Made by a program: the position numbers and the translations under genes. The notes under the pieces are model-generated. The model was not told where the DNA came from. It did no database searches and was given only the letters and a program-made list of their open reading frames with translations. From an uncultured archaeon (GTDB lineage Archaea > Aenigmatarchaeota > Aenigmatarchaeia > CG10238-14 > SCSR01): a stretch of 42,330 nucleotides of DNA. Positions 14,117 through 38,315 of the stretch are shown piece after piece; the first letter of the stretch is position 1, and every line of letters starts with the position of its first letter. The stretch covers positions 1-42,330 of the forward strand of contig CAYUFF010000001.1 in NCBI GenBank assembly GCA_964444075.1, read 5' to 3'.

Positions 14117-15298
14117 ATGAAAATATGCTTTCTTTGTGATAGCTTTTACCCTTATCTTGGGGGTTCAGAAACCTATCTTAAAGAACTAGGAATTGGTCTT
14201 TCTAAGTACAAAGATATTGAGGAAATAATTTATTTAACAGCTCTTCTACCACGAACGAATAAAGTTGTTGAGAAAAATGTTTTCGACAGCAAAAAAATAA
14301 AAATTATAAGAATTCCTTTCCCAACAAGTTCGTTCTCGGTTTTTTTATCTCGTTGTCTTTTTTCTCTAGGTAATGTTCTTCTTAAAAAAATTGTAGAGGA
14401 CGTCGACATTTATCATGTTATAACCTATCTTCCTTCTTTCACAGGATGGATTTTTCGTTACATGACCGGCAAACCGGTAGTACTTTTTTGTCACGAATTT
14501 TTTAGAGAAAAATGGAAATTTTTACGAGTACCTCCAGGTTCCTGTTTCTTCTTTAAAAAAATGGAGGAAATTATCTCCCATTTTCCTTACACATGGTTTA
14601 TTTGCCCTTCACAATACACAAAAAATTCTCTTGTCGAGGCTGGCGTTCCTCCACACAAGATTTCTGTGATTTATCATGGTGTTAGTGAAATTTTTTCTCC
14701 CATAGGGGGAAACTTAAGAAAAGTATTCAACTTAAAAGACTCACCAATTGTAGGGTGGATTGGAAGAATGCAAGAATGGGGTCAAAAGGGGATTCCCTTT
14801 CTGTTGAAAACAATAAAATACGTGAAAAATCAAATCCCCACTGTGAAATTTTTAATTGGGGGCCCGTATTTTAACAGAATAAAACCATTGATTGATAAAT
14901 TAGGTGTAAGAAAAAATGTTATTTACGTTGGAAGAGTTCCTTATCATAAATTACCCTTTTTTTACAGAACTTGCGATGTATTTCTTTCTACCTCTATTAG
15001 CGAGGGTTTTGGGTTTACTTGTGCTGAGGCTCAGAAATGTGGTATACCTGTTGTTGGTTTTCGCACAGGCGCACTCCCTGAAATTGTAAAAAATTATAAA
15101 ACGGGTCTCTTGATCGAACCTTTCGATGTAAAAGAATTATCGGAGAGTATTTGTGAAATCCTTCAAAATAGAGAGTGGAGGGAAAAAATGAGAAAAAACT
15201 GTGTAAGGATTTTTTCTAGAAAATTTAAATGGGAAACTTCAATAAAACATCACTATACCATTTATACCAAACTTTTACACGAATGTGAAAGAATTTGA
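14117..15298 (+). CDS. Glycosyltransferase family 4 (GT-B, RfaG/GT1-like)
   Basis: C-terminal 'STSISEGFGFTCAEAQKCGIPVVGFRTGALPEIV' has the E-x7-E GT4 motif. The gene is markedly AT-rich ('aaaaataaaaattataag') compared with its neighbours. Confidence 0.8.
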   Translation: MKICFLCDSFYPYLGGSETYLKELGIGLSKYKDIEEIIYLTALLPRTNKVVEKNVFDSKKIKIIRIPFPTSSFSVFLSRCLFSLGNVLLKKIVEDVDIYHVITYLPSFTGWIFRYMTGKPVVLFCHEFFREKWKFLRVPPGSCFFFKKMEEIISHFPYTWFICPSQYTKNSLVEAGVPPHKISVIYHGVSEIFSPIGGNLRKVFNLKDSPIVGWIGRMQEWGQKGIPFLLKTIKYVKNQIPTVKFLIGGPYFNRIKPLIDKLGVRKNVIYVGRVPYHKLPFFYRTCDVFLSTSISEGFGFTCAEAQKCGIPVVGFRTGALPEIVKNYKTGLLIEPFDVKELSESICEILQNREWREKMRKNCVRIFSRKFKWETSIKHHYTIYTKLLHECERI

Positions 15299-15471
15299 TT
15301 ATGTTTTTTAACTAAAACTATATCAAAAGTAAAGAAACGAACAAAAAAGCAAAGCTTTATAACCCCTTTTAAATTAACTGTGTAATTATGAAAAAATACA
15401 AACCTCTCTTGTTAGCGTGGTACATTCTCTTAATATGGATTTTAAGGAAGTTTCGACAAAAGTGATTAAGT

Positions 15472-17631
15472 ATGATGCCCTCGATCGACGTAAGCGCTCT
15501 CGCGAGAAAATGCTTTTACCCAAGCTTGCTTATCGTTTTGCTCGGAGGCATAGTTTATCTCTCGGTGTGGGTGAGGCTCTCCACAATCTCCACTCCTACT
15601 GTCTTGGACTACGACCCGTGGTGGTTCTACAGGCATGCGAAGATGATTTTGGAAAACGGATTTAAGATGCCCGCCTGGGATTATCTGAGCTTCTACCCTC
15701 CTGGAAGACCCGTCGAACCTTTCCAAGGATGGTCGTACACGATAGCGTTACTTTACCTGCTACTGAAAAACCTATCACCTTCCATCACGCTAACGAAGGC
15801 CGCGATAATCTCTCCGCTCGTGATGGTAGCGCTTACTCCTATTCCAGCTTTCTTCCTCGGCAGGATACTAACGCGAAACGACGTGGGGGCTTTGGCTACC
15901 GCCCTCTTCTCAACCTTAACGCCAGCTTTCATAGGAGTCAGCATGGCCGGTTATTGCGATACCGACGCTCCCGTGGTCTTTTACTCCTTCCTTTCCGTAT
16001 TGAGCGTAATCCTAGCCATTCAAAGAAAATCGATATCCCTATGCGTTATCGCCGCCCTCGTGAACTTCTTGTTCATCTTCAACTGGGGAGGAGGTTGGAT
16101 CACTCTCATGCTTTTCACCGCGTTCATCCCGGCGATCCTAGCCTTCAGGGTCCTCGAATCGTTCTTGCATACTGGAAGGTTGACGCTCACCACAGAATGC
16201 CTGCGAGAGTTGAAATCTCTCTTGCTTCCCTTGGTAATAATCCTCTCGATCACCAACGTGCTGGCAATCGTGTTCGGGTTCCACAACATCCTCCAATCTT
16301 TCAGGGGAAGCTTAGCCTTCACCGGCATAGCTGGTCAGCCCTTGATCGTGAACATCTCAGTAGCCGAGCTCCAACCCATCAACATTTTTACCAGGGACGG
16401 ATTTCTACAGGTCGCCGGTAGAGTGGGTGTCCTTCCTCTGGTCCTTTCTCTCTTCGGAATCCCTGCTCTCGCGATTTTCAAGCTTTGGAGGAGGGAAAGG
16501 ATTTCTTGGGTCGAGGTCTTCCTCTTCCTCTGGGCACTCGTCGCTTTCTACCTCATCTCAAGGGGTGTAAGGTTCTCGTTACTATTTTCGATCGCAGCCA
16601 CGGTCTCGAGCGGCTACGTGGTAGGAAACCTGTGGAACTACCTGAAAGGGAGGAGAGATGTCGTTTCCTTCACAGTTTTCGCCCTCCTGGCTTTCTTCTC
16701 GTTCCTCTTCGTTTCCCACGCAATAAAGATGGGAATCGCCAGCAAGGGAATGCTCATCAGCAAGAATTGGTATGAAATGCTAGATTGGCTTAAGGAAAAC
16801 GCTGATAAGGATGCTTTGGTAGCTACCTGGTGGGACCCTGGACATATACTCGCTGGTTACACGGGGTTGAAGGTTCATGCAGACGGAGCTCACTGCCCTC
16901 CTGCTCACTGCGTTCCCTACAACCACAACATAAGGATTCAGGACATGGGTAAAATCATGACTACAAGCGATGAGGAGGAGGCGATAAGGATAATAAAGAA
17001 GTACACGAACCTCACGAAGGAGCAGTGCGAGCAGGCCAAGGAGTGGCATAAGGGGAAGATGCCAGAAGATGCGTGCAAGCCCGTTAGCGAGGTTTACTTG
17101 ATAGCCAGCAACGACTTGATAGGCAAGTACTACTGGATGAGCTGCTTCGCAACCTTCGACTGGGACCTATGGACGAAGACCAACGGGAAGAAGTGGAGGT
17201 GTGATGGCAGGAGCTTCTTACAAGCGTTCTTCAAGAAGATGGACCAAGCCCGCGGGATAATAACTTATTGCCCTGGAAGCTGCGATACTTACAAGATTGA
17301 GCTCGTGACCAAGGAAGATAAGCTCGTTCCCGTGCTAACGGTTCCTGGGCAAGGAATAGTCAACGCGGTCGTGAAGGAAATAGTCTACTACCAAGACGGT
17401 AGGGAGGTCTCGCAGGTCTACGAGAAAGCCAAGGTAGATGGCTTGGTATGGGTTGACCCAAGCTTTTCTCTCGTTATCTACATGGACCCGAAAGTTAGGG
17501 ACTCTTTGTTCACAACTCTCTTTTTCTGGGACGGGGATAGTAGCAAGGCTTTCCCTGAGGGGAAGAAGCTCGAACACTTTAAACTAGTGCTCAAGAATCC
17601 AGAGATAAGGCTCTACAAGGTTGTTTTCTAG
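15472..17631 (+). CDS. aglB: Archaeal oligosaccharyltransferase AglB (STT3 homolog), 719 aa polytopic membrane protein
   Basis: Multi-TM N-terminal half with 'DYDPWWFYRHAKMILENGF' (first-loop DxD region). Soluble C-terminal domain carrying the STT3 signature 'WWDPGH' (WWDYG variant). Confidence 0.8.
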   Translation: MMPSIDVSALARKCFYPSLLIVLLGGIVYLSVWVRLSTISTPTVLDYDPWWFYRHAKMILENGFKMPAWDYLSFYPPGRPVEPFQGWSYTIALLYLLLKNLSPSITLTKAAIISPLVMVALTPIPAFFLGRILTRNDVGALATALFSTLTPAFIGVSMAGYCDTDAPVVFYSFLSVLSVILAIQRKSISLCVIAALVNFLFIFNWGGGWITLMLFTAFIPAILAFRVLESFLHTGRLTLTTECLRELKSLLLPLVIILSITNVLAIVFGFHNILQSFRGSLAFTGIAGQPLIVNISVAELQPINIFTRDGFLQVAGRVGVLPLVLSLFGIPALAIFKLWRRERISWVEVFLFLWALVAFYLISRGVRFSLLFSIAATVSSGYVVGNLWNYLKGRRDVVSFTVFALLAFFSFLFVSHAIKMGIASKGMLISKNWYEMLDWLKENADKDALVATWWDPGHILAGYTGLKVHADGAHCPPAHCVPYNHNIRIQDMGKIMTTSDEEEAIRIIKKYTNLTKEQCEQAKEWHKGKMPEDACKPVSEVYLIASNDLIGKYYWMSCFATFDWDLWTKTNGKKWRCDGRSFLQAFFKKMDQARGIITYCPGSCDTYKIELVTKEDKLVPVLTVPGQGIVNAVVKEIVYYQDGREVSQVYEKAKVDGLVWVDPSFSLVIYMDPKVRDSLFTTLFFWDGDSSKAFPEGKKLEHFKLVLKNPEIRLYKVVF

Positions 17632-18324
17632 CTAGAAGTACTTTTCCTTCGAGGAAATAACTATTCCTCGCTCGGTAATCTCGAAAGGATGAACCTGCAT
17701 GCTGTGCTTCGTCCTCCTCATCTTCACTATCTGCAAAGCACGCATGGGAGTTTCCAACGGCAAAACTTTCAGCACGATCACGCTATCGGCTATGAATTCC
17801 TCGAAGCCAAGCCTCCCGAGGGATTGCTGGCCCGATGGTATCTCGGTTATCACCACGCTTGTCATCCTGAGCCTTTTCAAAGTTTTTATCAGGTTGAAAA
17901 CCTTCGTCCTTATCTTGAAAGCTTCTTCCGGCCTTTCCTTCCAGCCCATCGCAGCAAGGGTTAAGCTATCCAGCACGAACCTTTTCACACTTCCCAACCT
18001 CGTGGCTTCTGTGTGGATGAAAGTTTTTAACTCTTCAACATCGCCGGGAGTGAAGTTTACTATCTTACAGAGCCCCTTTTCTATGTAGCTCTTGAAGTTC
18101 CAGCCGTACCTTTCCATGTCCTTCATTATTTCCTCCGGCTCTTGCTCCAGACTTACATATAGCCCTTTCTCTCCTGACTGCAAGCCCTTCCAGATGAATT
18201 GGCAGCCGAAAGTCGTCTTGCAAGTCCCTGTGGCACCAGCCACTAGGTTGACGGAATTCTCCACGAAGCCTCCCTCCATCAACTCATCGAGCCCAGGTAT
18301 TCCCGTCGGAACTCTTCCTGCCAT
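17632..18324 (-). CDS. KaiC-like single-domain RecA-superfamily ATPase (COG0467)
   Basis: 'TGIPGLDELMEGGF', Walker A 'GATGTCKTTF', C-terminal 'KMRRTKHSMQVHPFEITERGIVI'. Convergent with aglB; the stop codons abut ('tagcta'). Confidence 0.8.
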   Translation of the reverse strand: MAGRVPTGIPGLDELMEGGFVENSVNLVAGATGTCKTTFGCQFIWKGLQSGEKGLYVSLEQEPEEIMKDMERYGWNFKSYIEKGLCKIVNFTPGDVEELKTFIHTEATRLGSVKRFVLDSLTLAAMGWKERPEEAFKIRTKVFNLIKTLKRLRMTSVVITEIPSGQQSLGRLGFEEFIADSVIVLKVLPLETPMRALQIVKMRRTKHSMQVHPFEITERGIVISSKEKYF

Positions 18325-18365
18325 GGTTTCTGAATTTAATTTTTCCTGAGAAAAAATAATAAATT

Positions 18366-21300
18366 ATGCGCGAGTCCTTGCTGAAAGAGTTGTTCATCGC
18401 GATCACCTTCCTCACGCTTACCGTCGCTACTCTTGCTAAACTTTCTGTGGCGGCGTCACCATGGCCGAAGATACTCTTGGTCAAGGATGCCCATTGGTTC
18501 AAGGGAGAGTTAGTCGGAGTAGCCGAAGAGATTCACAAGTACTACGTTCGAATCTTTAACGGACTTAAAGATGAATATGGTATCGAGTACGAAAACTGTA
18601 CGATTCCGTGCACCGAGCAACCTTGTTCCGTTAACGGTCCCTGCTACAACTCAACCTATCCTTCCGGCTGCAAAAGTGGTTGTAAGGAAGGGGAGGACAT
18701 TTATCTCCAGGATTATGACGTGGTGATATGGGTTACCGGAGAAGATTCTGCAGGAGAAACGTTGGTTGAAGGTGATCAAGAGTCTTTAAAAGAATTCCTC
18801 GATAACGGGGGTATGCTCTTCCTTACAGGTCAGGACATTGGTTACGATATAGGCACCACGAGTTTTTACCAGGATTACTTACACGCCTATTATTGTAAGA
18901 ATGACATCGACGACTGGGACTTGGAAGGTAGGGAAAACGATCCGATAGGACATTACCTCAACCCTTACATTTCTGGAGGCGATGGGGCTGACAATCAGGA
19001 TTCTCCTTCAGTAATCTATTATTACCTTCCTCTCTTAGATGCGGTAGATAGTTCTAGGAGCTCGTTTTACTACGGGGATACTTCCGATAAAATAATCTTA
19101 GACTGTTTTAAGTGGGTGAAGTGGTTAGGTATATACTATGTCTGCCAAGAAGGAGAATGTAGGTGTGGGGAGAACTTAATTTGCAACTGGACAGACAAAG
19201 ATGACCCCTGCCACTCATTCTGTGACAGATATGAGGGCGATCCCTGCGTATACTGTGACGCTACTGAAGAGGTCGTCCTCACCTCAAAAATTCCCTCATC
19301 CGTTCGGGTAAACACCGGGGGACCTTTGGGTTATAAAGTGGTGTATTTCGCGTTCGGCTTCGAAGCCATCAACAATACGGATGATAGAAAGAGGGTGATG
19401 GGTAGAGTTTTAGCTTACCTTTTCCCGCCAAGGGTAAAAGAATCTCACATGTACGTTAACGCAAGTTCAATTTCTGGAGAAGATTGGGTCGAGGGCAACC
19501 TTACCTGCGACCCTAGCGATGAGTACTGTCATCGAGGTTATCCCAAGATAAACGCTACCTGCCGAAATTATCAGCTTTTCGGTAAAGTTAGCGGAGCTGA
19601 GTACTACATCGATGATCCGGTGCTACCAGAGAGGTTCGCTGGTAATGGTATTAATCTCCAAGCTAAGGATGGTAGCTTCAACGACGACTCTACCGAAGTC
19701 GTTGAAGGGGTGATTATTTTTCCAGAGAACCTACAACTGCCTAACACGATAGGTACGCACTACCTCTACGTCCATTGCAACGACACGGACGGTTACTGGG
19801 GAAAGTATGATAAACTCGTCTTTACAATCGATAGATACCATCCCCTCAATGTCATCTTTACATCCGACAACTCTCACTACACTAACAAAACCCTTCCAAA
19901 CTTTTTTGTGGAGTACGCTGACACGGACGAGTTTTACCATTATTCAAGGTTTTCGTGTAATGGAACTAGTTGGACTCCTTGGGAAAAAATAACTGGTAGT
20001 AACCAAGCTGGGACCTTCACTTTTTCGAGCGCTTTCAACGTTACAGTCTCGGAGTTCGGTTGTCCTACCGATGATGGTAACAGAACTATTTACGTCCAAA
20101 TAAGGGATTCCGCAGGGAATTGGCACGAGTCTGAATCTACAGCTTCATTCTGGGTTTTCTTGGACAGAAAGGCTCCGAGGATAATTTCCGTTTCTCCTCA
20201 AAACAAGTCTCACCCTTACCCTCACCTAAAGTCTTCCGACAACATCACGGTAACTTTCTACGACCCATCTCCAGCATCCGGTGTTGAGAGTAGCTACTGG
20301 GCGAACGAATCTCAAGGAGTTAAGCACGAGTTGTTCAATAACACTCCTTTTAACCCAGGGTGGAAGAACGAGGGAACCAACTACCTTTACACGTGGATAA
20401 TCGATAAGGCTGGGAACGTTAACAAAAGCGTTTTCACTTTCGTTGTAGACGACACACCTCCTTACGTTAGCATAATCTTTCCTGAAGATGGTGAACACTA
20501 CAACACCACAAGCTTAAACCTGAACTTTACTGCCTACGACGTTCTGAGCGGAGTGGATTCTTGCTGGTACTCTTTAGACGGTGGAGATAATCAAACGATT
20601 CCTTCCTGTCAGAACATCACCATGACAAACCTTACAGAAGGTGTTCATGAGCTCAAGCTTTTCGTCAACGATTCCCTAGCGACGAGGGGGAACGAGAATT
20701 CCACGAGCATCGAGTTCACGATAGACTTAACAAAACCTTTCGTCTACTTGCTTTCCCCCACTAACGGTTCTTGGCTGGCTACCCAGTATCCAGAGTTTTC
20801 TTTCAAGGTCGTGGACAACCTCGCGAAGGTTATGAAGTGCAAGCTTTACGTCGACGGGAGCCTTAGGAAAGAGTTTCCGAGCGTTCATAACAATACCACT
20901 ACCTCTTGGGAAATCGACGTGGCCCTCGATGAAGGTCTCCACAACTGGACTGTAGCGTGCGTGGATAAAGCCGGCAACAGCAACGTTAGCGAGACTCGGT
21001 GGTTCTATGTCGACGTCAGCACACCAGAGGTAAAGTTGATCTCTCCAGTAGATAACGAGTGGGTAAACACCACGAGACCGAAGTTTTACTTCAACGCTAC
21101 CGACAATCTTTCCCCAACGTTAACGTGCAAGCTCTACATCGGTAGTTCTCCCGATAACTCTACCGAGGTGCAGAGCGGTGAGATAACTTACATCCTTGCC
21201 AACAACAGCGTTGGCGAAGGTAGACACGAGTACTGGGTAGAATGCTTCGATATGGCTAACAACGGATACGGGGCCTCCTCAGTATTTAGAGTCGACGTTA

Positions 21301-24300
21301 CTCCACCACGAATCTCCGACCTGAAGCCTAGTAACGAGACGTGGACGAGCAATGACACCATAATCTTCGAGTTTAACGCTACCGACAACCTTTCTCCATC
21401 GATCTACTGCAGCCTTTTGGTAAACTCCTCTATCAAGAAAACTTTGGAAACTCCAGGTAATGTGGTCGAAAAGGTTGAGCTGATTTTCTCTTCTGACGGG
21501 GTATTTTCTTGGAAGGTTAACTGTAGCGATGAAGCAGGCAACGAGAACGAAACCCTCGCTCGCTTACTCTTCGTAGACTTCACGCCACCATCCACTAGCG
21601 ATAATGCCTCTTCCTCCTGGACGAAGGAGAATCAAACTATTCTTCTAACTTGCGTGGATAATCTCTCTGGTTGTAACAAGACTCTCTACTGCACCTACGA
21701 TGAAGGAGCGACTCCTTGCGAGCCTTCCCAACAGCCTCAGAACGTTTCGAAGAAAGGTGAAAGGGAAGTCAACTACACCTTGGAGGTAGATTGTCCTGAA
21801 GGGAGCACCTGCAAGAAGTACTTGAGGTACTTCAGCAACGACACTCTCTCTAACGAGGAAAACGTTAAAGAAACTCTCATTCTCATAGACAAGCAAGCAC
21901 CGTCGATAACGATCCTTTCCCCGCAGGAAGGAAAGACCTATAGCGGTGTTGTAGAGCTTAAGGCTAAGGTTGTCGACATTGGGGTTGGCGTCGATAAGGT
22001 ATGGTTCGAAATCAGGAACTCCACCAACATTCCGCAAGTCTTCGCGAGCGGCATGATGGAAAGATGTGACGATGACACGTGGTGCTCCTCATGGGATAGT
22101 TCTTCGATAACCAACGGAACGTTCGTGTTTAACGTTTCAGCAAACGACACGTTTGGGTACTTGAAGCAAAACGTTAACGTAACTTTCCACATCGCTAACA
22201 CTTATCCTTCCGTAAAGATTTATTATCCTTCGCGAGTTTTCGTGAACGACAGCTTCAACCTCAACTTAACAGTGGAATCGCCTGCCACACCTGATGTAAA
22301 CATTTCCTTCGCTTACTACAACATCTCCAACGAAACTCGCCACATGGTAAAGCATAACGAAAGCGGAATAGTGAACCAATCCTCCTACGTTTTCAGCGAG
22401 CTTTTCAACATCTCTTCTTCTTGCAATAACGCTGCTTGCAGCGAGGGTAACTACACGATATTCTTCTGGGCGAACAATACTCAAGGCAAGATTTCCAACG
22501 TAACTTCTTGGTTCGTGATAGACATTACTAGACCATCAATCAGGTTGAACTCACCCGCTGACGATACTTGGTTTTCTTTGAGAGTCATTGACGTAAGCTT
22601 CACACCTATCGATAACCTTTCGCCTACGCTCTTTTGCGAGCTTTTGGTTAACGACGTGGTTAACGCGAGTGACGAGGTTGACAACTCTACTCAAATCATC
22701 TTTTCAACGAGCGAGTTAGAGGAAGGGCATCATTCTTGGAAGATAAGGTGTAAGGACAAAGCCGGCAACAGCAACGTTAGCGAGACTCGGTGGTTCTACG
22801 TTGACGTTAGCAAGCCCAAGATCGAGTTGATTTCTCCTGGAGATGGGGAATGGTTGAACGACACGACACTTACCTTAAAATTCAAGGCAATCGATAACCT
22901 TTCACCGAATTTGACTTGCGATATTTTCGTAGACGGTTCGAAAGACGGTAGCAAATCTGTTAGTAACGCGGAAGAAGCTGCCTACGAAGTTTCGATAAGT
23001 GAGGGTGAGCATTCCTGGAAGGTGAACTGCAGCGACCTTGCAAAAAACTCCAACGAATCTTACCCACGAGAGTTCTACGTTGACGTTACACCACCAGAAG
23101 TTACACTCATCTCTCCCGATAATGACACTTGGACCAACAATCCTTATCCAACCTTTGAATTCAAGGGTTACGACAACCTTGCTAGCAGACTGAACTGCAG
23201 CCTCGTAATCGACGGAATAATTCTCGCTTCGAAAATAGTTTACAACGGTAGCGAGGAATCGATCACTCCCTCAACAGCTCTGGGAAGCGGGGAGAGGAAA
23301 TGGAAAATAGTTTGTAAAGATTTTGCAGGCAATACCAAAGAGAGTGAAGAAAGGGTTATAAACGTCGATACCCTTGCTCCAAACACCAGCGATAACGTCA
23401 GCAGCGAGTGGAAGAACGTTGACCAAAGCATCCTGCTAACTTGTAAGGACCTTCCTTCCGATAACCCTTCTGGCTGTAATGTAACCCTAGTAAGTACTTG
23501 CGACGCTTATACTTCAGAATGCTCGCCTTTCTCTCAGCCTCAGAACGTTTCGAAGAAAGGTGAAGCTGAGGTCAACTATTCCCTAACTTTAACCTGCGAT
23601 GAAGGAAAGGTTTGCGAGTACTATTTGAAGTACTATTCCAACGATACCCTCGGTAACTTGGAGAATGTAAAGTCTTCTGGAAGGGTAAAAATAGACAAGT
23701 TCGTTCCTAGGGTTTCGATCCTTTCTCCGAAGGATAATGAATTTGTCAGCGGAATCTTGCAAATAAAAGTTAAGATCGTAGAAAATGGCTCTGGAATCAA
23801 GGAGGTAAGATTCCTAATCAAAAATTCCACTTTCAACGTTTCGGGAGAGTTGAGCGAGAGTGACGAAGGAATTTGGGTATCTACGTTCGACACCACCTCG
23901 TTGAAAGACGGTACTTACGAGCTTTGGATAAACGCTAGTGATAACGCTACTAACGTCAACTGCACTGAGCACGTTTCCTTTAAGGTCGATAATACACCAC
24001 CAAGTCTCATAAGCAATGTGACGAGCTTATCCTTGGATAAAAGCTACGGAGATTATAGATTGCTGTACGGGGAACAATTCACTTTCTCGGCCGAGCTGGA
24101 GGATTTCGTCGGTGTCGATTCAGCTTTCCTAAGGATAAAACTGTCCAACGGAGAGAATTGGCTCGGTTATCCACTCTCCTTAGCTGAAGGTAACGAGAAC
24201 TTTGGGAATTGGAGCACTACAGTCTCGATCCAGGAAGAAAGTTTTCCGCTGGGAGCGCACACCATTCACTCTCTAGTGGTCGCTGATAAGTTGGGTAATA

Positions 24301-27300
24301 CCAAGGTGTATCAGGTGGACATTCCGTTCAGGGTAGTGAACCTAACCTTAGAGCTGAAGGTCTGCAATACAACCTACATAGACGCAGGAAGGAAATGCAA
24401 GCTCAACCTCACAATAGATTTCAACAAGACGGTTCCCAACCCTAGCATCGCCTTGGAGATTCCGAAAGAGCTTCAAAACCAAACCGCTTACGCTTGTTCG
24501 CTCGACGATAGCAAAGCTTGCAACGTTGAGAACGTTGAGCTCGAAGGTTCTTATGCCGTTTATCTGGAGGCTCGTGGTTTAGAGGATTCTTCGAGGATGA
24601 ACCTTACTTCATTACTCAAGGCTGTAACTCCGCTAGAAGATAGAAAACTTACTTGGAACTTCACTTTCATGGGAAAGACTTACAAGCTTCACACCTTGCT
24701 CAGGACGCCATACCTTAACATCACCAACGTGACTTGCGATTCCTCTTCCGCCTGCGAAGTGGAGCAGAAGAAAAAGTTTAACTTCACCGTGTTTGTCGAG
24801 AACGTGAACCAACCATCGCTCCACACGGGAAGTGCTTACGAGGTCTTCGCTAACTACACGAGCGAAATCTCTGCCGGTATAGCGAAGAAAGTTTCTGAAT
24901 TGTTAGAAAGTGGTGAGGAAGCCTTCGCAACCTGGGAACTAAACCTTACCAAAGCAGGGGAACACATCTTCAAGGTCTTCGCGTGGGAATTCACGCGAGT
25001 CTACAACGCTACCTTCGAGAAGAAGGTTAAGGTACTCGACGTGGAGAAGCCTCAGCTAATCGACGTTTACTGGAAGGATGACGATAACGTTTTCAACAGG
25101 AATGAAACCATCGAGTACTTCGTGAAAGCGAGGGACAACGTTGGAATTAGAAGCGTTTGGGTTGAGGTCAACAACTCTGAGAAAAACTTCCTGAGAAACC
25201 TCTCGCTAGCTTTAGAGTATGCTTTCGAAGATTACGAGCTGTGGAAGCTCGAGTACAAGAACGATTCAGCAGGAATTTATAACATAACGAGAATCTTCGT
25301 CAACGACACTTCCGGAAACCTCGAAGTATTCGTTCCCACTGGCAAGGAAGCTTTGTTCGAAATAAGGAAGCTTTCCGTCAACGCTTCAGTCGCCTCACCT
25401 TCGCTCAAGGTGGGGAATTATCAGAACATTACCGCTAGCATTTCTGGAAACGCTTCGCTGGTAACGAAGGTCGTAGCAAAGATAACCAAGCCATACGGAG
25501 AAACCGAAACGATTACCTTAACCGACTCCGGAAACTTTACTTACGTGGGTAGCCTTTTCGTGGACGAATCCGGAAACTACAGCATAAACGTTTCCGTCAC
25601 CCTCGCTTCAGGAATTGAGAGGTTTAACCTAACCAACTTCTCCTCACCCTACGGAACTCCAAGGATAGAAACTAGGAATCTTACTTTACTCAACGGAAGT
25701 TCTTACGAGTTTTCGTATTACTTGTACCCTCAAGGAGGAGACCTCATCGGCGTAAACGCTAGCTTAATCATCGATAACGAAAGCGTGATAATTTCGGAGG
25801 AGGGTTCTAGCAAAACTCTGGGAGATATTCTTTGGAAGGAGTGGAAGGATGAAGGTTTCAGGTCTACTTGGAAGTTGCTGGCCAAGAATGTTGGCGAGAC
25901 CAACGTTACGCTACTCGTAAACTCCAGTAAAGGAGGTAATTCCCAAAGAACTTTCTTCGTAAGGGTCGTTGGAAGCGATGAAAAACCACCCTCGCTTAAG
26001 GAGTACTCCCACGAGTATCCAAGGTTAAATCTGATGGAAGAAAACCCGATAAAGGTTATAGCCTACGACAACGAAACTGAAATCAAGAACGTTACCATAC
26101 TCGTAACTTTCCCGAGCGGTGTCACGAAAAGCTACGAGGCTACCGAATACGAACCCTTCAGCTACGTGCTACTCTTCAACGAGACGGAAGAAGTCGGTAA
26201 TTATACCTACGAGGTAAAGGTTTTCGACCTCGCCGGTAACGTCAACGTAAGCTCTGAGAAAGGGAGCTTCGAGGTCGTCGATACTTTCTTGGTCAGCGTA
26301 ACACACTCTCCTTACAACAAGGGTGATTTGATAACGTTCAAAGTCAACGTTACCGACGCTAGGGGCTTGCCGGTAAAAGGTTTCAACCTCACCCTGGTTC
26401 TACAGAAGAACGAGACGGGCAACCAAACTCTTGCGAACAACACGATAACAGAAGAGGTTTCCTACAGGGTCATGCCTACCGACCCTCCCGAAAGCAGTAG
26501 GGAAAAATCTTTGGCCTCGACCTACGTGGTTTACGCTACGGTTACTAAAAACGGAAACAAAGGTGTTTACAAGGGAGAGTTTGAGGTTAGCGAAGAACTT
26601 AAAACTACCATAATCTATCCTTCCGCTGGAGCTTACTTCTCGCCGGGTGGTAAGATTCCTCTGAAAGTGGAAGTTAAAAACGTTAGGGGAGAGATTGTAG
26701 ATGATGCCGTCGTGGTAGCTTATTGTCCGGATTGTTCCTGGAACTACAGGCTCGTTCCTTGGAACAGCAGCTTACAAGCTTATTATTCTCCAGAAGCTTT
26801 CATAGCACCGAATAAAGAAAGCTTCTCGATTTTCGTCTACTCGGTAGACCACTGGAAGAACATGGGAATGTACGGAGAAGTGCTAACCACGGTAAAGCCA
26901 CCAGAGTATCCTACCATTCCTCCAGGAGGCGGAGGGGCTGAAGAAGGCTTTCCTGGGATAACTTGCAACTGTACTCCTTGGATTGAGATAGGTTGCGGTA
27001 TGGGTACTTGCAAGGACGATGAGATGTACATGGTAAGGACCTGCAACCCTCCGGGGTGCGCTGCAGAAACGAAGTGTGAAAAAGTGCCCGCATGCATAAA
27101 GGGAAAGTTCAGCTTGGAGTTTCCAGATGCGGCAGAAGTCATGCAGGGAAAGGACTCCGTTTTGATAGGAAGCGTGAGAAACAACGAGAAAATAGGGATT
27201 AAAGTCGTGTTCTCTTGGGTAGAGAAACCGAAGGTCCCGATTTCGCTAACCCTTCCTGGAGCAATTTCTCTCGGTGCTGGAGAATCGAAAGATTTTGAAG

Positions 27301-28187
27301 TAAGGATTCACGTCCCGCTCAACGTGAGCGTAGGTGAGTATCCGGCTTCGTTTTCTGCGAAGAGCAAGAATTATACCTTCGCGAAGACTTTCAAGATAAT
27401 CGTAAAACCGAACCCGCTGATAGAGAAATATGTGAGTTTGCAAGAGTCGTTGAAGGAATTCAAGAAAACGCTGGAAGCTTACAGAAAAGTTGGAGTCGAC
27501 GTTAGGGAGATAGAAGACCTCGTTAAAACTTTAGAGAAGAGACTTGAGAAAGCGAGAGCCTCGTTGAAAAAGGATGAGTTGAAAGTATTCGAAGCGGAGA
27601 TAAAGTCTGCCGAAAAGGTTGTGAACGCTGTGAAGCTAAAAATATTCCAGCTGAAGCTCTGGAAGTTCTTGTTGGAAAACAAGTGGAATTTCATAATCAT
27701 CGCCCTAGCAGCGCTCTTCTCGAACTATTTCGCTACGCAAGTAGCGATCCCTTACTACAAGCTTACGAAGAAGTTGAGGAAGCTTAAAGACGAAGAACAA
27801 TCGCTGATAGCGGCGAGAGTCGAGGTTCAGAAGCAGTACTTCACGAGGAAGATAGACGAAAGAACTTTCTTCGCCTTAATGGCGGAGAAACAGGGAAAAA
27901 TCCTTAGAGTAAGGGCTGACGTGAGAAGACTAGAGCTAGCGAGGAGGAAGTTACTGATATCCAAACTACATCCAAAAGAAATGTTAAAGTGGATGAAAGA
28001 AAGTTTTGCAAACCTACCGAAAAGTTTGAGAAAGTTGAGAGGTGTTCCTTCAAAGAAGAGGAAGGTGGAAAGGAAGCCGCCCTCTTTGATGGTTCCTGAG
28101 ATAAAGATCAGTATGGAAGTGAAATACAGGATTTGGAAGATAAAGCACAAGCTGAAAAAACTATTTAGGAGTGTTTTCAAAACTTAA
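18366..28187 (+). CDS. Giant cell-surface glycoprotein (3273 aa). It has a signal peptide and Cys-rich N-terminal modules. It has tandem ~95-aa Ig-like repeats and a ~600-aa segmental duplication. It has a Cys-rich juxtamembrane knot, a beta-domain, a coiled coil and a TM helix. It has a ~150-aa basic coiled-coil cytoplasmic tail.
   Basis: 'MRESLLKELFIAITFLTLTVATLAKLSVAAS' signal. Extremely dense N-x-S/T sequons. Repeat consensus 'P.V.LISP.D..W.N...P.F.F...DNLSP.L.C.L.VDG...W.V.C.D.AGN.N'. TM 'NFIIIALAALFSNYFATQVAI'. Tail 'KKLRKLKDEEQ...KKRKVERKPPSL'. Uninterrupted 9.8-kb ORF. Confidence 0.85.
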   Translation: MRESLLKELFIAITFLTLTVATLAKLSVAASPWPKILLVKDAHWFKGELVGVAEEIHKYYVRIFNGLKDEYGIEYENCTIPCTEQPCSVNGPCYNSTYPSGCKSGCKEGEDIYLQDYDVVIWVTGEDSAGETLVEGDQESLKEFLDNGGMLFLTGQDIGYDIGTTSFYQDYLHAYYCKNDIDDWDLEGRENDPIGHYLNPYISGGDGADNQDSPSVIYYYLPLLDAVDSSRSSFYYGDTSDKIILDCFKWVKWLGIYYVCQEGECRCGENLICNWTDKDDPCHSFCDRYEGDPCVYCDATEEVVLTSKIPSSVRVNTGGPLGYKVVYFAFGFEAINNTDDRKRVMGRVLAYLFPPRVKESHMYVNASSISGEDWVEGNLTCDPSDEYCHRGYPKINATCRNYQLFGKVSGAEYYIDDPVLPERFAGNGINLQAKDGSFNDDSTEVVEGVIIFPENLQLPNTIGTHYLYVHCNDTDGYWGKYDKLVFTIDRYHPLNVIFTSDNSHYTNKTLPNFFVEYADTDEFYHYSRFSCNGTSWTPWEKITGSNQAGTFTFSSAFNVTVSEFGCPTDDGNRTIYVQIRDSAGNWHESESTASFWVFLDRKAPRIISVSPQNKSHPYPHLKSSDNITVTFYDPSPASGVESSYWANESQGVKHELFNNTPFNPGWKNEGTNYLYTWIIDKAGNVNKSVFTFVVDDTPPYVSIIFPEDGEHYNTTSLNLNFTAYDVLSGVDSCWYSLDGGDNQTIPSCQNITMTNLTEGVHELKLFVNDSLATRGNENSTSIEFTIDLTKPFVYLLSPTNGSWLATQYPEFSFKVVDNLAKVMKCKLYVDGSLRKEFPSVHNNTTTSWEIDVALDEGLHNWTVACVDKAGNSNVSETRWFYVDVSTPEVKLISPVDNEWVNTTRPKFYFNATDNLSPTLTCKLYIGSSPDNSTEVQSGEITYILANNSVGEGRHEYWVECFDMANNGYGASSVFRVDVTPPRISDLKPSNETWTSNDTIIFEFNATDNLSPSIYCSLLVNSSIKKTLETPGNVVEKVELIFSSDGVFSWKVNCSDEAGNENETLARLLFVDFTPPSTSDNASSSWTKENQTILLTCVDNLSGCNKTLYCTYDEGATPCEPSQQPQNVSKKGEREVNYTLEVDCPEGSTCKKYLRYFSNDTLSNEENVKETLILIDKQAPSITILSPQEGKTYSGVVELKAKVVDIGVGVDKVWFEIRNSTNIPQVFASGMMERCDDDTWCSSWDSSSITNGTFVFNVSANDTFGYLKQNVNVTFHIANTYPSVKIYYPSRVFVNDSFNLNLTVESPATPDVNISFAYYNISNETRHMVKHNESGIVNQSSYVFSELFNISSSCNNAACSEGNYTIFFWANNTQGKISNVTSWFVIDITRPSIRLNSPADDTWFSLRVIDVSFTPIDNLSPTLFCELLVNDVVNASDEVDNSTQIIFSTSELEEGHHSWKIRCKDKAGNSNVSETRWFYVDVSKPKIELISPGDGEWLNDTTLTLKFKAIDNLSPNLTCDIFVDGSKDGSKSVSNAEEAAYEVSISEGEHSWKVNCSDLAKNSNESYPREFYVDVTPPEVTLISPDNDTWTNNPYPTFEFKGYDNLASRLNCSLVIDGIILASKIVYNGSEESITPSTALGSGERKWKIVCKDFAGNTKESEERVINVDTLAPNTSDNVSSEWKNVDQSILLTCKDLPSDNPSGCNVTLVSTCDAYTSECSPFSQPQNVSKKGEAEVNYSLTLTCDEGKVCEYYLKYYSNDTLGNLENVKSSGRVKIDKFVPRVSILSPKDNEFVSGILQIKVKIVENGSGIKEVRFLIKNSTFNVSGELSESDEGIWVSTFDTTSLKDGTYELWINASDNATNVNCTEHVSFKVDNTPPSLISNVTSLSLDKSYGDYRLLYGEQFTFSAELEDFVGVDSAFLRIKLSNGENWLGYPLSLAEGNENFGNWSTTVSIQEESFPLGAHTIHSLVVADKLGNTKVYQVDIPFRVVNLTLELKVCNTTYIDAGRKCKLNLTIDFNKTVPNPSIALEIPKELQNQTAYACSLDDSKACNVENVELEGSYAVYLEARGLEDSSRMNLTSLLKAVTPLEDRKLTWNFTFMGKTYKLHTLLRTPYLNITNVTCDSSSACEVEQKKKFNFTVFVENVNQPSLHTGSAYEVFANYTSEISAGIAKKVSELLESGEEAFATWELNLTKAGEHIFKVFAWEFTRVYNATFEKKVKVLDVEKPQLIDVYWKDDDNVFNRNETIEYFVKARDNVGIRSVWVEVNNSEKNFLRNLSLALEYAFEDYELWKLEYKNDSAGIYNITRIFVNDTSGNLEVFVPTGKEALFEIRKLSVNASVASPSLKVGNYQNITASISGNASLVTKVVAKITKPYGETETITLTDSGNFTYVGSLFVDESGNYSINVSVTLASGIERFNLTNFSSPYGTPRIETRNLTLLNGSSYEFSYYLYPQGGDLIGVNASLIIDNESVIISEEGSSKTLGDILWKEWKDEGFRSTWKLLAKNVGETNVTLLVNSSKGGNSQRTFFVRVVGSDEKPPSLKEYSHEYPRLNLMEENPIKVIAYDNETEIKNVTILVTFPSGVTKSYEATEYEPFSYVLLFNETEEVGNYTYEVKVFDLAGNVNVSSEKGSFEVVDTFLVSVTHSPYNKGDLITFKVNVTDARGLPVKGFNLTLVLQKNETGNQTLANNTITEEVSYRVMPTDPPESSREKSLASTYVVYATVTKNGNKGVYKGEFEVSEELKTTIIYPSAGAYFSPGGKIPLKVEVKNVRGEIVDDAVVVAYCPDCSWNYRLVPWNSSLQAYYSPEAFIAPNKESFSIFVYSVDHWKNMGMYGEVLTTVKPPEYPTIPPGGGGAEEGFPGITCNCTPWIEIGCGMGTCKDDEMYMVRTCNPPGCAAETKCEKVPACIKGKFSLEFPDAAEVMQGKDSVLIGSVRNNEKIGIKVVFSWVEKPKVPISLTLPGAISLGAGESKDFEVRIHVPLNVSVGEYPASFSAKSKNYTFAKTFKIIVKPNPLIEKYVSLQESLKEFKKTLEAYRKVGVDVREIEDLVKTLEKRLEKARASLKKDELKVFEAEIKSAEKVVNAVKLKIFQLKLWKFLLENKWNFIIIALAALFSNYFATQVAIPYYKLTKKLRKLKDEEQSLIAARVEVQKQYFTRKIDERTFFALMAEKQGKILRVRADVRRLELARRKLLISKLHPKEMLKWMKESFANLPKSLRKLRGVPSKKRKVERKPPSLMVPEIKISMEVKYRIWKIKHKLKKLFRSVFKT
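20967..21007 (+). repeat. 41-nt perfect intragenic repeat, copy 1 (encodes '..KAGNSNVSETRWFY..')
   Basis: 'aaagccggcaacagcaacgttagcgagactcggtggttcta' is identical to 22758..22798. In-frame offset 1791 nt. Confidence 0.85.
22758..22798 (+). repeat. 41-nt perfect intragenic repeat, copy 2
   Basis: Identical to 20967..21007. Flanking sequence is also about 70-80% identical over several hundred nt (for example 21732.. vs 23535.., 'cagcctcagaacgtttcgaagaaaggtgaa'). Confidence 0.85.
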
Positions 28188-28195
28188 AATTTAGT

Positions 28196-28972
28196 ATGGA
28201 GTTCGAAAACTCTGAGGAAAGGGGAATTGTAGAAAGAGTTTCTACCGGAGTGATCGGTCTAGACGAGCTTATTCAGGGCGGCTTCGTCAAAGGCTCTGTA
28301 GTACTAGTTACGGGAAAGACTGGGACAGGAAAGACAGCTTTCGCCGCGAGCTACCTTTACGAAGGTGCTAAGAGGGATGAGCCGGGTGTGTACGTTACGA
28401 CAGAAGAGAGGGAGGAAGATATAAAGGATGATATAATGGCCATGTTCGGTTGGGATTTAAGAGCCTTGGAGGAGAAAAAACTGGTTAAATTCTTGTCGGT
28501 AAAGCCAGTGATACCGACTTCAGCTATACGAGCATTTTCTTCGATGGAGGAGGAGATAGGGAGCATAATAAAGCTCTACATAATCGACCTGTCTAAGAAG
28601 ATCGAGGAAGCCGTTAAGGAGATAAACGCCAAGCGCGTCGTGATAGACTCGATATCGATCATCGAGATGTTCATCAAAGATGAATATATGAGGAGGGTAG
28701 CCTTAATCCAGCTCGTAAACAACCTGAAGGAGCTCGGAGTTACCACCCTCCTCACCGGAACCATCGAGGAAGGTTCCGAAGCCTTGAGCCTTTCTGGAAT
28801 AATAGAGTTCATCGTGGACGGCGTGATAAAGCTGGACTTCGTCCCCGTAGCGGAGGAGTTCAAGAGGACCTTAACAGTCAGGAAGATGAGGAGAACCGAG
28901 CACTCGATCTATATTCATCCCTTCGAGATAACCAAGGAAGGCCTCAAGATCGTAGAAATATCTTCCATCTGA
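28196..28972 (+). CDS. KaiC-like single-domain RecA-superfamily ATPase, paralog of 17632..18324
   Basis: 'TGVIGLDELIQGGF', Walker A 'GKTGTGKTAF', C-terminal 'KMRRTEHSIYIHPFEITKEGLKIV'. Starts 8 nt after the giant protein's stop, so it is likely co-transcribed. Confidence 0.8.
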   Translation: MEFENSEERGIVERVSTGVIGLDELIQGGFVKGSVVLVTGKTGTGKTAFAASYLYEGAKRDEPGVYVTTEEREEDIKDDIMAMFGWDLRALEEKKLVKFLSVKPVIPTSAIRAFSSMEEEIGSIIKLYIIDLSKKIEEAVKEINAKRVVIDSISIIEMFIKDEYMRRVALIQLVNNLKELGVTTLLTGTIEEGSEALSLSGIIEFIVDGVIKLDFVPVAEEFKRTLTVRKMRRTEHSIYIHPFEITKEGLKIVEISSI

Positions 28973-28974
28973 AT

Positions 28975-29685
28975 CTACAGAAATCTCTGTAGTCCAGGTT
29001 TCAAAGTGGAAGTATCTATTAGCACTATCTCCTTGTTTACAGGAAGTGCTACGTTGTATACCGGAACTCTCCCGACCCACGCGAACCTCTTTCCTTTGTG
29101 AGAATGTCCGTGTACCACCAAGCTCGGCTCTCTTTTCCACAGAACCTCTTCCATTTTCCTGCTGCCCAAGAAGGGGTAGGTCCTCCTCGGCTCTCCTTCC
29201 AGCGTCCTGTAAGTCGGTGAGTAGTGGATGAGGAGTATCCTGAAGCTCGCGTTAGAAATTTTTTCGAGGAGCCCGTCGACCTTCGAGATCCTTTCCCTGT
29301 ATATTTCCCTTATGTTTGGTATGTTCCTAACCTGCCAGCTCGTCGGAGAATCCAGGCTTCCAGTACTTCCCACTATCCCTACGTCCTCTCCCCTAATTTT
29401 AAGCACGACGTAGCTATCGTCGAGGAAAATTATTTCCCTGAACCTCCTCTTCATCTCCTCCCTTATTTCCTGGTACTCGTTGTTCCCGAAGCACGCCACC
29501 ACCGGGCAGTCTACCTTTCCGAAAAGGGCGTTCACCACCTTCTCCATTTCCAAGACGCTACCGTTGTCCACCATGTCGCCGGCGAGCAAGAAAAGGTCCG
29601 GCTTCTTTTCCATCCTTTCCAAAGCACTCAAGAACTCCTGGTAGTACTGGGGGCTATGAATGTCTGCCGTCGAGGCAATAATCAT
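28975..29685 (-). CDS. Calcineurin-like metallophosphoesterase
   Basis: Motifs 'ADIHSP' (DxH), 'AGDMVDNG' (GDxxD), 'FGNNEY' (GNHE-like), 'VVHGHSHKG'. Confidence 0.75.
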   Translation of the reverse strand: MIIASTADIHSPQYYQEFLSALERMEKKPDLFLLAGDMVDNGSVLEMEKVVNALFGKVDCPVVACFGNNEYQEIREEMKRRFREIIFLDDSYVVLKIRGEDVGIVGSTGSLDSPTSWQVRNIPNIREIYRERISKVDGLLEKISNASFRILLIHYSPTYRTLEGEPRRTYPFLGSRKMEEVLWKREPSLVVHGHSHKGKRFAWVGRVPVYNVALPVNKEIVLIDTSTLKPGLQRFL

Positions 29686-29736
29686 ACTTAGAATGCCTCC
29701 TCAACAAACATTTAAATTTCCCTCCAAAATTTAATT

Positions 29737-30678
29737 GTGAGTCCGAGGAACGGGGTCGCCTCACGGCTTTTCGTCGGAATAGTAGGCTTCGCGGCGTTCC
29801 TGCTACTCTTGAAAATTTTCCTCCCGGGACTTTTCACCCTAATCCTTCGAGCGCTCCCTTTCCTTGCCCTGGCTTCCGTAGCCTTCTTCGGCTTTTACAA
29901 GGTCTTCATCGTAAACTACGGCGAGACGGAAAGGGGAATAATCTACAGGTTCGGAAAGTTTAATAGGGTAGCTGGCCCAGGATGGGCGATCGTTATACCG
30001 TTCTTCGAGCAGGAGTTTAAGAGGGTTGACATAAGGACTAGGAGCGTGACGCTCAACAACATAACGGCGGTAACCAGGGATGACATTCCTCTGACCTTGG
30101 ATGCCGTCTTCTTCTACTCGATAGCCGACCCCAAGAAAGCCGTACTCCAAGTTACCGTACTCGAGGATGCTCTAAACAACTTCGTTTACGGGGTAATAAG
30201 GGATAGCGTTGGCGGCTTCGTGATGAGGGAAGCCTTCTACAACATCGAAGGTATTAACGAGGAGTGCAAGAAAAGGTTGGTGTTCGCCCTCGAAGAATGG
30301 GGTGCCGACGTGAAGGATGTGGAGATCCTCAGGGTCAAGATTCCGGACGATGTGTTCAAGGCGTTGATAGCACCGGTAACCGAAGAGCAGAAGGCTATAG
30401 CGGCGAGGTTCCAAGCGGAGGCTAAGAGGGTCGCTGTAGAGGTCTTGGGAGACGCTGCAGAAAGGCTGAACCCGCAGGCTTTGACCTACCTTTACCTCAA
30501 GGCGCTAGAAAAGATAGCATCTTCCAAGGGCTCGAAGATAGTGCTGCCGGCTTCCTTTCCAAAGATTACCGAAGACTTGATGAAAGGCGTTGGAATAGGA
30601 GCTGGGTTGGAGGCCATAAACGCCGAGGAGGCGATCAAGAAAATAGCGGAAAAACTACAGCAGAAACCTGGGGGTTAA
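29737..30678 (+). CDS. SPFH/band-7 (stomatin/prohibitin-like) membrane protein
   Basis: N-terminal TM followed by 'GIIYRFGKFNRVAGPGWAIVIPFFEQEFKRVDIRTRSVTL..TRDDIPLTLDAVFFYSIADP', typical of the SPFH domain. Ala/Glu-rich coiled-coil C-terminus. GTG start. Confidence 0.8.
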   Translation: MSPRNGVASRLFVGIVGFAAFLLLLKIFLPGLFTLILRALPFLALASVAFFGFYKVFIVNYGETERGIIYRFGKFNRVAGPGWAIVIPFFEQEFKRVDIRTRSVTLNNITAVTRDDIPLTLDAVFFYSIADPKKAVLQVTVLEDALNNFVYGVIRDSVGGFVMREAFYNIEGINEECKKRLVFALEEWGADVKDVEILRVKIPDDVFKALIAPVTEEQKAIAARFQAEAKRVAVEVLGDAAERLNPQALTYLYLKALEKIASSKGSKIVLPASFPKITEDLMKGVGIGAGLEAINAEEAIKKIAEKLQQKPGG

Positions 30679-36020: not shown

Positions 36021-36031
36021 GGTCGTGACCC

Positions 36032-36559: not shown

Positions 36560-36569
36560 GGTCTGTCCG

Positions 36570-37403: not shown

Positions 37404-37512
37404 AGCGTACTAGCACGTTTTCCCGGTGTTGCCTTACACAAAGGATGAAAGCCGAAACCGCGGCTTCCCTCGAAACGAAATTTTTAAGTTTTTTACTTCC
37501 CTCCTTACCCAT

Positions 37513-38223: not shown

Positions 38224-38315
38224 GAGGAATGGAAAAAGGTTTTATTAAGACTCGCGTACTTAGGATAAATTAACTCCAGCCGCGCCGGCCGTCCTGTGGG
38301 GTTGAGGGTGGGCGC

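Follow-up and report, generated by a model that had tools for sequence, protein, structure and literature searches.

The subject here is a pair of neighbouring archaeal genes, one encoding a giant surface protein and the next a KaiC-like ATPase that we call KaiC2. They lie in a 42,330-nucleotide (nt) stretch of DNA, the window, which comprises positions 1 to 42,330 of the forward strand of contig CAYUFF010000001.1 (NCBI GenBank assembly GCA_964444075.1). The organism is an uncultured archaeon of the GTDB lineage Archaea; Aenigmatarchaeota; Aenigmatarchaeia; CG10238-14; SCSR01. Aenigmatarchaeota belong to the DPANN archaea; they are uncultured and are believed to rely on contact with other cells. 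Comparison of gene neighbourhoods shows that the conserved unit in this phylum is a two-gene operon, in which the gene for a surface protein with a characteristic C-terminal module is followed by KaiC2. We propose that the operon combines a KaiC-like ATPase with a partner of a newly recognized class, and that the surface proteins make up a new protein family. A preliminary description of the window had drawn the boundary more widely, adding an AglB oligosaccharyltransferase, a GT4 glycosyltransferase and a second KaiC-like ATPase (KaiC1) to make an envelope module of five genes.

The case for the operon comes from both of its ends. We collected 28 loci, 24 of them distinct, in part by searching with a four-sequence alignment of the module; a metagenome scan added only four loci. 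The downstream region is visible in 19 loci, and in 13 of these the next gene downstream, in the same orientation, encodes a KaiC2 orthologue (the window, L001/L002 counted once, L005, L007, L008, L011, L015, L016, L017 and L019–L022). The encoded proteins are 56 to 82% identical to KaiC2 and only 32 to 39% identical to KaiC1. Spacing between the two genes ranges from overlap to about 160 nt (the latter in L008; the others have about 60 nt or less), and in L005, L021, L022 and L028 the stop and start codons overlap. KaiC2 is thus predicted to share a transcript with the module gene and often to be translationally coupled to it. The closest locus, L008, comes from an Aenigmatarchaeota metagenome-assembled genome (MAG); its module is 46% and its KaiC2 76% identical to those of the window, and its phosphoesterase (61%) and Band_7 protein (74%) match two further window genes. 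Beyond such close relatives the flanks differ completely between lineages. The pair occurs in at least six distinct flanking contexts, among them ribosomal genes with GlnRS (L005), GatD/GatB with AdoMet decarboxylase (L023–26), NosD (L027) and T2SSE (L007).

Coming from the other end, we took four KaiC2 orthologues (P0228, P0239, P0127 and P0216), selected blind to their neighbours, solely for KaiC similarity and the length of their contigs. In every case the gene just before KaiC2 encodes a sequon-rich protein of 892 to 2183 amino acids (aa) that carries the module, matching its hidden Markov model (HMM) with E-values of 1e-57 to 1e-63. Together, the downstream survey and this reciprocal test establish the module protein and KaiC2 as a conserved operon. 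The preliminary description had supposed a link between the giant protein and KaiC that goes beyond chance, and the 13 of 19 loci, the four out of four in reverse, the varied flanks and the overlapping codons all bear this out.

The open reading frame (ORF) map of the window reproduces all five genes at the coordinates first given for them, and a Pfam search upholds their assignment to GT4, STT3/AglB and, twice, KaiC. The genes and the parts of the giant protein are as follows.

14117..15298, + strand: GT4 glycosyltransferase gene (Pfam Glycos_transf_1, 1.2e-37; Glyco_transf_4, 1.1e-15).
15472..17631, + strand: AglB oligosaccharyltransferase gene (STT3, PF02516, 2.2e-26; WWDPGH at aa 453).
17632..18324, − strand: KaiC1, a divergent KaiC-like protein (PF06745, 9e-60; deviant Walker A GATGTCKT; E-to-Q in the catalytic Glu pair).
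18325..18365, no strand: spacer between the divergent start codons of KaiC1 and the giant gene (41 nt, AT-rich, read from the sequence).
18366..28187, + strand: giant type I surface glycoprotein, 3273 aa (Pfam, sequon count, collinear homologues).
18471..19427 (aa ~36–354), + strand: N-terminal head with a ThuA/class I glutamine-amidotransferase-like alpha/beta fold.
27384..27680 (aa 3007–3105), + strand: extracellular three-helix stalk, the start of the C-terminal module (alignment A1, AlphaFold).
27681..27749 (aa 3106–3128), + strand: transmembrane (TM) helix (Kyte–Doolittle window aa 3109–3127 = 1.73; AlphaFold).
27750..27965 (aa 3129–3200), + strand: conserved cytoplasmic helical hairpin, candidate KaiC2 docking site (conservation).
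27966..28184 (aa 3201–3273), + strand: distal basic tail, K/R-rich and weakly conserved.
28196..28972, + strand: KaiC2, single-domain KaiC-like ATPase, CI-like (PF06745, 8e-66; canonical motifs).

The gene junctions are also as first reported. The stop codons of AglB and KaiC1 adjoin (tag|cta, 17629–17634), and 8 nt separate the stop of the giant gene from the start of KaiC2. The 41-nt spacer at the other end of the giant gene is a candidate for a compact bidirectional promoter.

At the heart of the pair is a C-terminal module of 220 aa common to the giant protein and its relatives. Fourteen sequences align over it without a gap (alignment A1) at pairwise identities of 22 to 45%. Its best conserved part is the hairpin, with the motif PYYKLxKEI...EKQYFxRKIDExTF...Q..IL..R. 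Mean pairwise identity is 43% in the hairpin, 26% across stalk and TM helix and 20% in the distal tail, and all four invariant columns of A1 (P123, F153, R155 and F162) fall within the hairpin. In an AlphaFold model of the module (pLDDT 88), three stalk helices occupy module positions 11–36, 41–62 and 66–98, a single long helix passes through the membrane to form the first arm of the cytoplasmic hairpin, and a return helix forms the second; the tail, modelled to aa 3226, is all-helical. Neither module nor tail matches anything in Pfam, and Foldseek comparison of the model with the PDB gave generic helical matches only, with E-values of 0.2 or worse. A SHOCT-like motif suspected by eye in the tail was dropped, having no support of any kind (the Pfam search on the tail was empty).

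The module profile, which the window protein matches with 255 bits, was run with HMMER exhaustively against 1.84 billion representative proteins. At E<=1e-3 it matched 350 proteins; tightening the threshold to E<=1e-30 left 149 representative clusters. Those matches that fall in the genome collection all come from Aenigmatarchaeota or unclassified DPANN MAGs. We propose these ‘stalk–TM–hairpin’ proteins of the Aenigmatarchaeota, with at least 149 clusters by profile search, as a new family and domain outside Pfam. Members differ enormously in size. The longest has 6,221 aa and the shortest verified full-length member 892 aa (L027), the shortest entries of all being mostly contig fragments. With ectodomains running from about 890 to 6,221 aa, the constant is the 220-aa module and not giant size. 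It is C-terminal in most members, and about 25 of 144 representatives carry 90 to 434 aa beyond it. One member has three CBS domains fused after the cytoplasmic tail (4.7e-39), another has its tail extended by a multi-TM Exosortase_EpsH-like domain (1.4e-8), and the P0003/P0243/P0331 clade, which is without an adjacent KaiC2, shows a weak OB-fold-like tail extension (E 0.002, below cutoff). These three examples are P0307, P0348 and the P0003/P0243/P0331 group.

Read from its N terminus, the giant protein consists of a signal peptide, the ThuA-like head, an array of immunoglobulin (Ig)-like repeats, the stalk, the TM helix and the cytoplasmic tail. Pfam recognizes seven Big_13 and four Big_7 domains in the array. 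A database search returned the identical protein, on a 54-kb NCBI contig, and sixteen homologues (P0002–P0016 and P0018) that match it end to end or over long collinear stretches, with 23 to 42% identity over the aligned blocks. The signal-like hydrophobic segment spans aa 5–23, and the single C-terminal TM segment has its hydropathy core at aa 3109–3127. N-x-S/T sequons number 137, against 37.2 ± 5.3 in 500 composition-preserving shuffles, an excess of about 19 standard deviations; glycosylation of the protein is predicted from them. They lie on one side of the membrane: 136 of the 137 are N-terminal of the TM segment, one lies past aa 3000 and the tail has none. The tail itself, 146 aa long, carries 44 K/R against 14 D/E. 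From its signal peptide, the distribution of its sequons, its positive-inside charge and the existence of a CBS-tailed family member, the sequence defines a type I membrane protein with the hairpin on the cytoplasmic side. The initial picture of a sequon-rich type I protein with one TM helix and a basic, helical cytoplasmic tail was therefore a sound one.

The head (aa ~36–354) is conserved among the homologues (alignment A3) and lacks conserved Cys or His residues. Without a conserved Cys nucleophile it is probably non-catalytic, and it is probably a binding or oligomerization domain rather than an enzyme. The same domain is found in many large secreted proteins of bacteria and archaea, including some of S8/C25-peptidase type, sometimes in several copies. 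Some homologues, and only some, have a Cys-rich insertion in the head (CQEGECRCGENLICNW...CHSFC...CVYC).

KaiC2 is a single-domain protein of 258 aa that matches PF06745 with 222 bits (cutoff 26.6) over profile positions 1–229 of 231. Together with 13 orthologues it conserves the Walker A motif GKTGTGKT, the Glu pair TTEE, the Walker B motif VVIDS and the arginine-finger region RKMRRTxHS. At the level of its motifs, then, KaiC2 is catalytically competent. The orthologues also share a subfamily-specific insertion of about 20 aa that is missing from the other KaiC-like genes of the same loci. Against KaiC in the PDB the match is strong (E 3.6e-60), the best stretch covering CI residues 7–246, and the residues that align with the CII phosphosites S431/T432 are not Ser or Thr (by eye). 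Given this similarity to the CI half and these substitutions, KaiC2 looks like an ATPase switch of CI type rather than an autokinase. By analogy with other KaiC/RecA-type proteins it presumably forms a hexameric ring. Pfam also reports a weak GvpD_P-loop match (3.2e-5). The possibility of a defence system was considered and set aside, PADLOC giving only weak matches at the level of the P-loop.

The two KaiC-like proteins had been thought paralogous. Both are indeed KaiC-domain proteins, 37% identical to each other, but they belong to different subfamilies and are not recent paralogues: KaiC2 scores 132 bits against KaiC1 (phmmer), less than the 163 bits (7.9e-47) it scores against Pyrococcus PH0186 and less than its score against the CI domain of KaiC. 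KaiC1 has 230 aa in a single domain and matches PF06745 with 202 bits (cutoff 26.6) over profile positions 1–230 of 231. Four proteins of its type (window 17632–18324, − strand; L001 8799–9506; L005 9225–9938; L027 6033–6713) have a deviant P-loop, GxxGT[C/L]KT, and in three of the four the Glu pair carries an E-to-Q change (LEQ/VEQ), the L005 protein keeping LEE. The deviant P-loop and the E-to-Q change point to nucleotide binding with impaired hydrolysis, so KaiC1 is probably hydrolysis-impaired as judged from its motifs. Nor is the bracketing of the giant gene by two KaiC-like genes general. It holds in the window and in L001/L002 and L005, the only loci with a KaiC1 orthologue (57 to 72% identity) divergently upstream. 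In L027 a 48%-identical relative of KaiC1 (GTTGTLKT, VEQE) lies 1.3 kb downstream of KaiC2. KaiC1 is an accessory limited to certain lineages, where it may serve as a modulator or as a heteromeric partner. As a group, the KaiC1-type proteins form a conserved KaiC-like subfamily that tends to neighbour the KaiC2 operon.

Other arrangements of KaiC-like genes came to light in the surveyed loci. Upstream of the module gene of L003, positions 2257–8073 hold four KaiC-like genes (the KaiC2 orthologue and three more) as well as Peptidase_M73; one of the KaiC-like genes is fused to a GTPase domain of Ras/Arf/Roc type and is followed by a Roadblock/LC7 gene. This is a dense cluster of KaiC and small-GTPase signalling genes. 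In L022 (3137–7254, − strand) and L028 (1–6592, − strand), one to three genes for large secreted proteins with CARDB, NosD/Laminin_G and cohesin domains diverge from the module gene and are followed by another canonical KaiC-like gene. The arrangement may be a second pairing of surface protein and KaiC, with a surface protein that gives no match to the module HMM.

What of the glycosylation genes? AglB matches PF02516 with 93.8 bits (cutoff 24.5) and has, by eye, a D-Y-D in its first loop; against the NCBIfam model archaeo_STT3 it scores 75.6, below the cutoff of 450. GT4 exceeds the cutoffs of both Glyco_transf_4 (58.5 bits) and Glycos_transf_1 (129.5 bits), and no NCBIfam equivalog threshold was reached that would give its specificity. 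Its gene is as AT-rich as first noted, with a G+C content (GC) of 33.8% against 46 to 52% in the neighbouring genes, an anomaly that suggests recent horizontal acquisition. There is also a sub-threshold Pfam match of GT4 to ‘GT4-conflict’ (5.7e-5), with no match in PADLOC. Neither gene recurs as a neighbour of the pair in the 27 other loci surveyed, the closest relative included. For AglB, tblastn found no match in 21 other loci, and the gene tables of L023–L028 list no STT3; for GT4, tblastn against the same 21 loci found only weak matches in L014 (28 to 32% identity, at non-equivalent positions), and the tables of L023–L028 do not list it. In L001, the closest fully annotated relative, the gene past KaiC1 is AF1548-like and not AglB.

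AglB probably does glycosylate the giant protein, as it would any exported protein that bears sequons. The window contains a natural internal control: another type I surface protein (501–4655, + strand; 1384 aa), which has a signal peptide and a HYDIN/VesB-like Ig domain. The stalk that precedes its TM segment gives a weak match to positions 14–91 of the module HMM. The tail beyond is short and basic and has no QYFxRKIDE motif, and the gene has no KaiC neighbour. The protein has 80 sequons where 23.5 are expected, a 3.4-fold enrichment. Sequon saturation had been read as marking out the giant protein as a special substrate of AglB; the equal enrichment of this second protein makes it a property common to the proteins that this organism exports, and so no evidence for a dedicated AglB–substrate module.

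The rest of the window can be dealt with briefly. Beyond KaiC2, at 28975–30678, lie a Metallophos phosphoesterase (− strand) and an SPFH/Band_7 protein (+ strand). This arrangement is kept only in L001/L002 and L008, the closest relatives (57 to 80% identity), and is thus lineage synteny outside the core pair. An anaerobic ribonucleotide reductase gene, NrdD (5843–9151, − strand), is interrupted by an intein that includes a homing-endonuclease domain of LAGLIDADG type. The ORF of a radical-SAM activase (5136–5987), as listed, overlaps the 3′ end of NrdD by about 145 nt, which makes a later start codon likely for the activase. GC is 55 to 59% across 36000–42330 against 44 to 50% in the left half of the window.

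What might the pair do? We favour, tentatively, direct contact between tail and KaiC2 as an ATP-dependent switch or anchor, with the coupling running either outside-in or inside-out. A ring of KaiC2 would dock on the cytoplasmic hairpins of the clustered surface protein, itself Sec-exported and heavily N-glycosylatable. Through its ATP-bound or hydrolysis state, KaiC2 would then couple events at the surface protein (contact with a ligand or host, oligomerization) to the cytoplasm. The nearest precedent is in the archaellum, where a ring of the KaiC-like protein FlaH (ArlH) binds the cytoplasmic C terminus of membrane-anchored FlaX. That the hairpin is the best conserved part of the module and holds every invariant residue is as expected of a conserved intracellular binding surface. 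Several things weigh on the other side. Six of the 19 loci (L003, L004, L006, L010, L012 and L014) have no adjacent KaiC2 and yet retain the cytoplasmic motif intact; L003, L010 and L012 are one clade whose tail has the extra OB-like extension, and a frameshift is possible in L014. The KaiC2 orthologue of L003 is found 7 kb upstream, on the strand opposite to that of the module gene. No fusion of tail to KaiC occurs in any of 144 representative family members, and the fold of the tail model resembles none that is known to bind KaiC (best Foldseek E 0.2). The surveyed loci are not phylogenetically independent, the analysis is comparative genomics of uncultured MAGs throughout, and an internal promoter upstream of the window's KaiC2 is possible from the sequence. 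DPANN archaea, to our knowledge, largely lack classical two-component systems. A bolder form of the switch, which we consider possible though unlikely, would make the giant glycosylated adhesin a receptor whose hairpin gates the KaiC ring. Contact with a host or surface would then become an ATP-dependent signal with KaiC1 as its modulator, perhaps as the main sensor of host contact in DPANN archaea.

Other readings start from the same genes. It is conceivable, if doubtful, that the role is one of structure or assembly, the KaiC2 ring acting as a cytoplasmic anchor or organizer that clusters or spaces the stalks (in a lattice or spike) or that aids insertion and assembly. Translational coupling suggests stoichiometric co-production, the archaellum basal body, where FlaH sits inside a ring of FlaX, offers a structural precedent, and the surface protein resembles those of a surface layer (S-layer) in its signal peptide, its stalk, its TM anchor at the C terminus and its density of sequons. 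Against this, Pfam finds no homology to known S-layer families, six loci manage without an adjacent KaiC2, and the conserved catalytic residues of KaiC2 suggest a need for ATP turnover, more in keeping with a switch than with a passive anchor. KaiC2 might instead never touch the tail and act at the level of expression, on the transcription or stability of the surface protein or of other factors, in the way of GvpD in the case of gas vesicles or of CirA, an archaeal KaiC-like protein that regulates motility (PMC10983859); the two genes would then be neighbours for the sake of co-regulation. Characterized archaeal KaiC-like proteins do include regulators of this kind, and KaiC2 has its weak similarity to the GvpD P-loop. 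We think this improbable: it leaves both the conservation of the hairpin and the tight, overlapping coupling of the operon unexplained, and the surveyed neighbourhoods share no gene for a DNA-binding or protease partner. The five-gene envelope module of the preliminary description, a dedicated unit for glycosylation, anchoring and signalling, has in its favour that the genes are physically adjacent in the window and that AglB, from its known role, very probably glycosylates the giant protein. The synteny survey contradicts it. Equivalents of AglB and GT4 recur in no other surveyed locus, GT4 looks foreign by its GC, KaiC1 adjacency is confined to three lineages and the unlinked 501–4655 protein is just as rich in sequons, so we give this version very little credence. 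Equally hard to credit is the idea that the pair is inherited synteny in a narrow clade with no functional link. The loci do all belong to a single phylum, several of them to closely related lineages, but the proteins have diverged (22 to 45% identity in the module, 23 to 42% in the rest), the ectodomain varies several-fold in length, the flanks have been reshuffled in at least six contexts while the two genes have remained side by side in the same orientation, little space or even an overlap between them, and the blind reciprocal test came out at four of four.

KaiC-like ATPases are among the commonest predicted regulators in archaea, and this locus offers a concrete candidate partner for one of them, a hairpin of about 70 aa encoded in the same operon. 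The largest surface proteins of Aenigmatarchaeota are prime candidates for making cell contact, and the pair points to an undescribed link between cell surface and cytoplasm in these organisms. If KaiC2 docks on the tail, it would provide the first molecular handle on surface-to-cytoplasm coupling in DPANN archaea. The tail peptide and the ATPase would also make a simple system of two proteins in which to study a non-circadian function of KaiC.

The preliminary description held the system to be new, and we found no account of it in the literature searched. Our search turned up no description of a pair of module protein and KaiC2, although a listing in the supplementary tables of the 2017 KaiC survey is possible. 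In layout the giant protein resembles the C-terminally anchored S-layer and stalk glycoproteins, such as Staphylothermus tetrabrachion and the haloarchaeal S-layer glycoprotein. It shares with them a signal peptide, a membrane-proximal helical stalk, a C-terminal TM segment and dense sequons. They are much smaller and are not known to have a conserved cytoplasmic domain or a dedicated ATPase partner, and no S-layer Pfam family matches the giant protein or its tail. The giant proteins of other episymbionts among DPANN archaea and the candidate phyla radiation (CPR) are likewise very large surface proteins of reduced-genome, host-associated lineages. They include the SPEARE proteins of Nanohaloarchaeota, giant DPANN surface proteins thought to mediate cell–cell contact (PMC9563170, PMC10266531). 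Unlike these, our giant protein is without protease or endonuclease domains in Pfam, and neither a KaiC partner nor a conserved cytoplasmic tail is reported for SPEARE proteins (PMC9563170, PMC10266531).

For the ATPase, the most instructive comparison is with FlaH (ArlH) and FlaX of the crenarchaeal archaellum. FlaH too is a single-domain ATPase of KaiC/RecA-like type, and its partner is the set of cytoplasmic C-terminal helices of a single-pass protein. FlaH binds the FlaX C terminus and forms a ring inside the FlaX ring, through interactions that depend on nucleotide (PMC5019145). The differences are as clear. The partner here is a protein with a huge glycosylated ectodomain and a family-specific tail of its own; FlaH shows no ATP hydrolysis in vitro, whereas KaiC2 keeps all catalytic residues; and the ArlH model scores KaiC2 at 46.8 and KaiC1 at 33.8 bits against an NCBIfam cutoff of 215. 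Genes for arlI, arlJ, archaellin and T2SSE are absent from the scanned ORFs of the window. An association with type IV pili, after Makarova 2016, was considered and rejected, a T2SSE gene being adjacent in one locus only (L007), and the annotated loci otherwise contain no type IV pilus genes. A circadian KaiABC system was rejected as well, the NCBIfam KaiC equivalog scoring 173 against a cutoff of 408 and no KaiA or KaiB family appearing among the scanned window ORFs. Cyanobacterial KaiC and the Pyrococcus proteins PH0186 and PH0284 are nonetheless the best sequence matches, and KaiC2 retains Walker A, the EE pair and the R-finger region. Cyanobacterial KaiC is a CI–CII tandem, whereas KaiC2 and KaiC1 are single-domain proteins, KaiC2 with its subfamily-specific insertion. 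The defining features of each were looked for and not found, which places the pair outside the archaellum, type IV pilus and circadian systems.

The setting that suits it best is that of the stand-alone archaeal KaiC-like ATPases, which Makarova, Galperin and Koonin reportedly described in 2017 (mBio) as ‘signal-transduction hubs’. Like these hubs and the KaiC proteins associated with type IV pili, KaiC2 is a stand-alone KaiC ATPase in an operon with a membrane or surface-structure gene, and a second partner is predicted. KaiC-family ATPases recur as predicted regulators of archaeal surface structures, with partners that are mostly unknown (PMC4858521). The pair described here differs in that a candidate partner can be identified, the hairpin on a type I surface glycoprotein.

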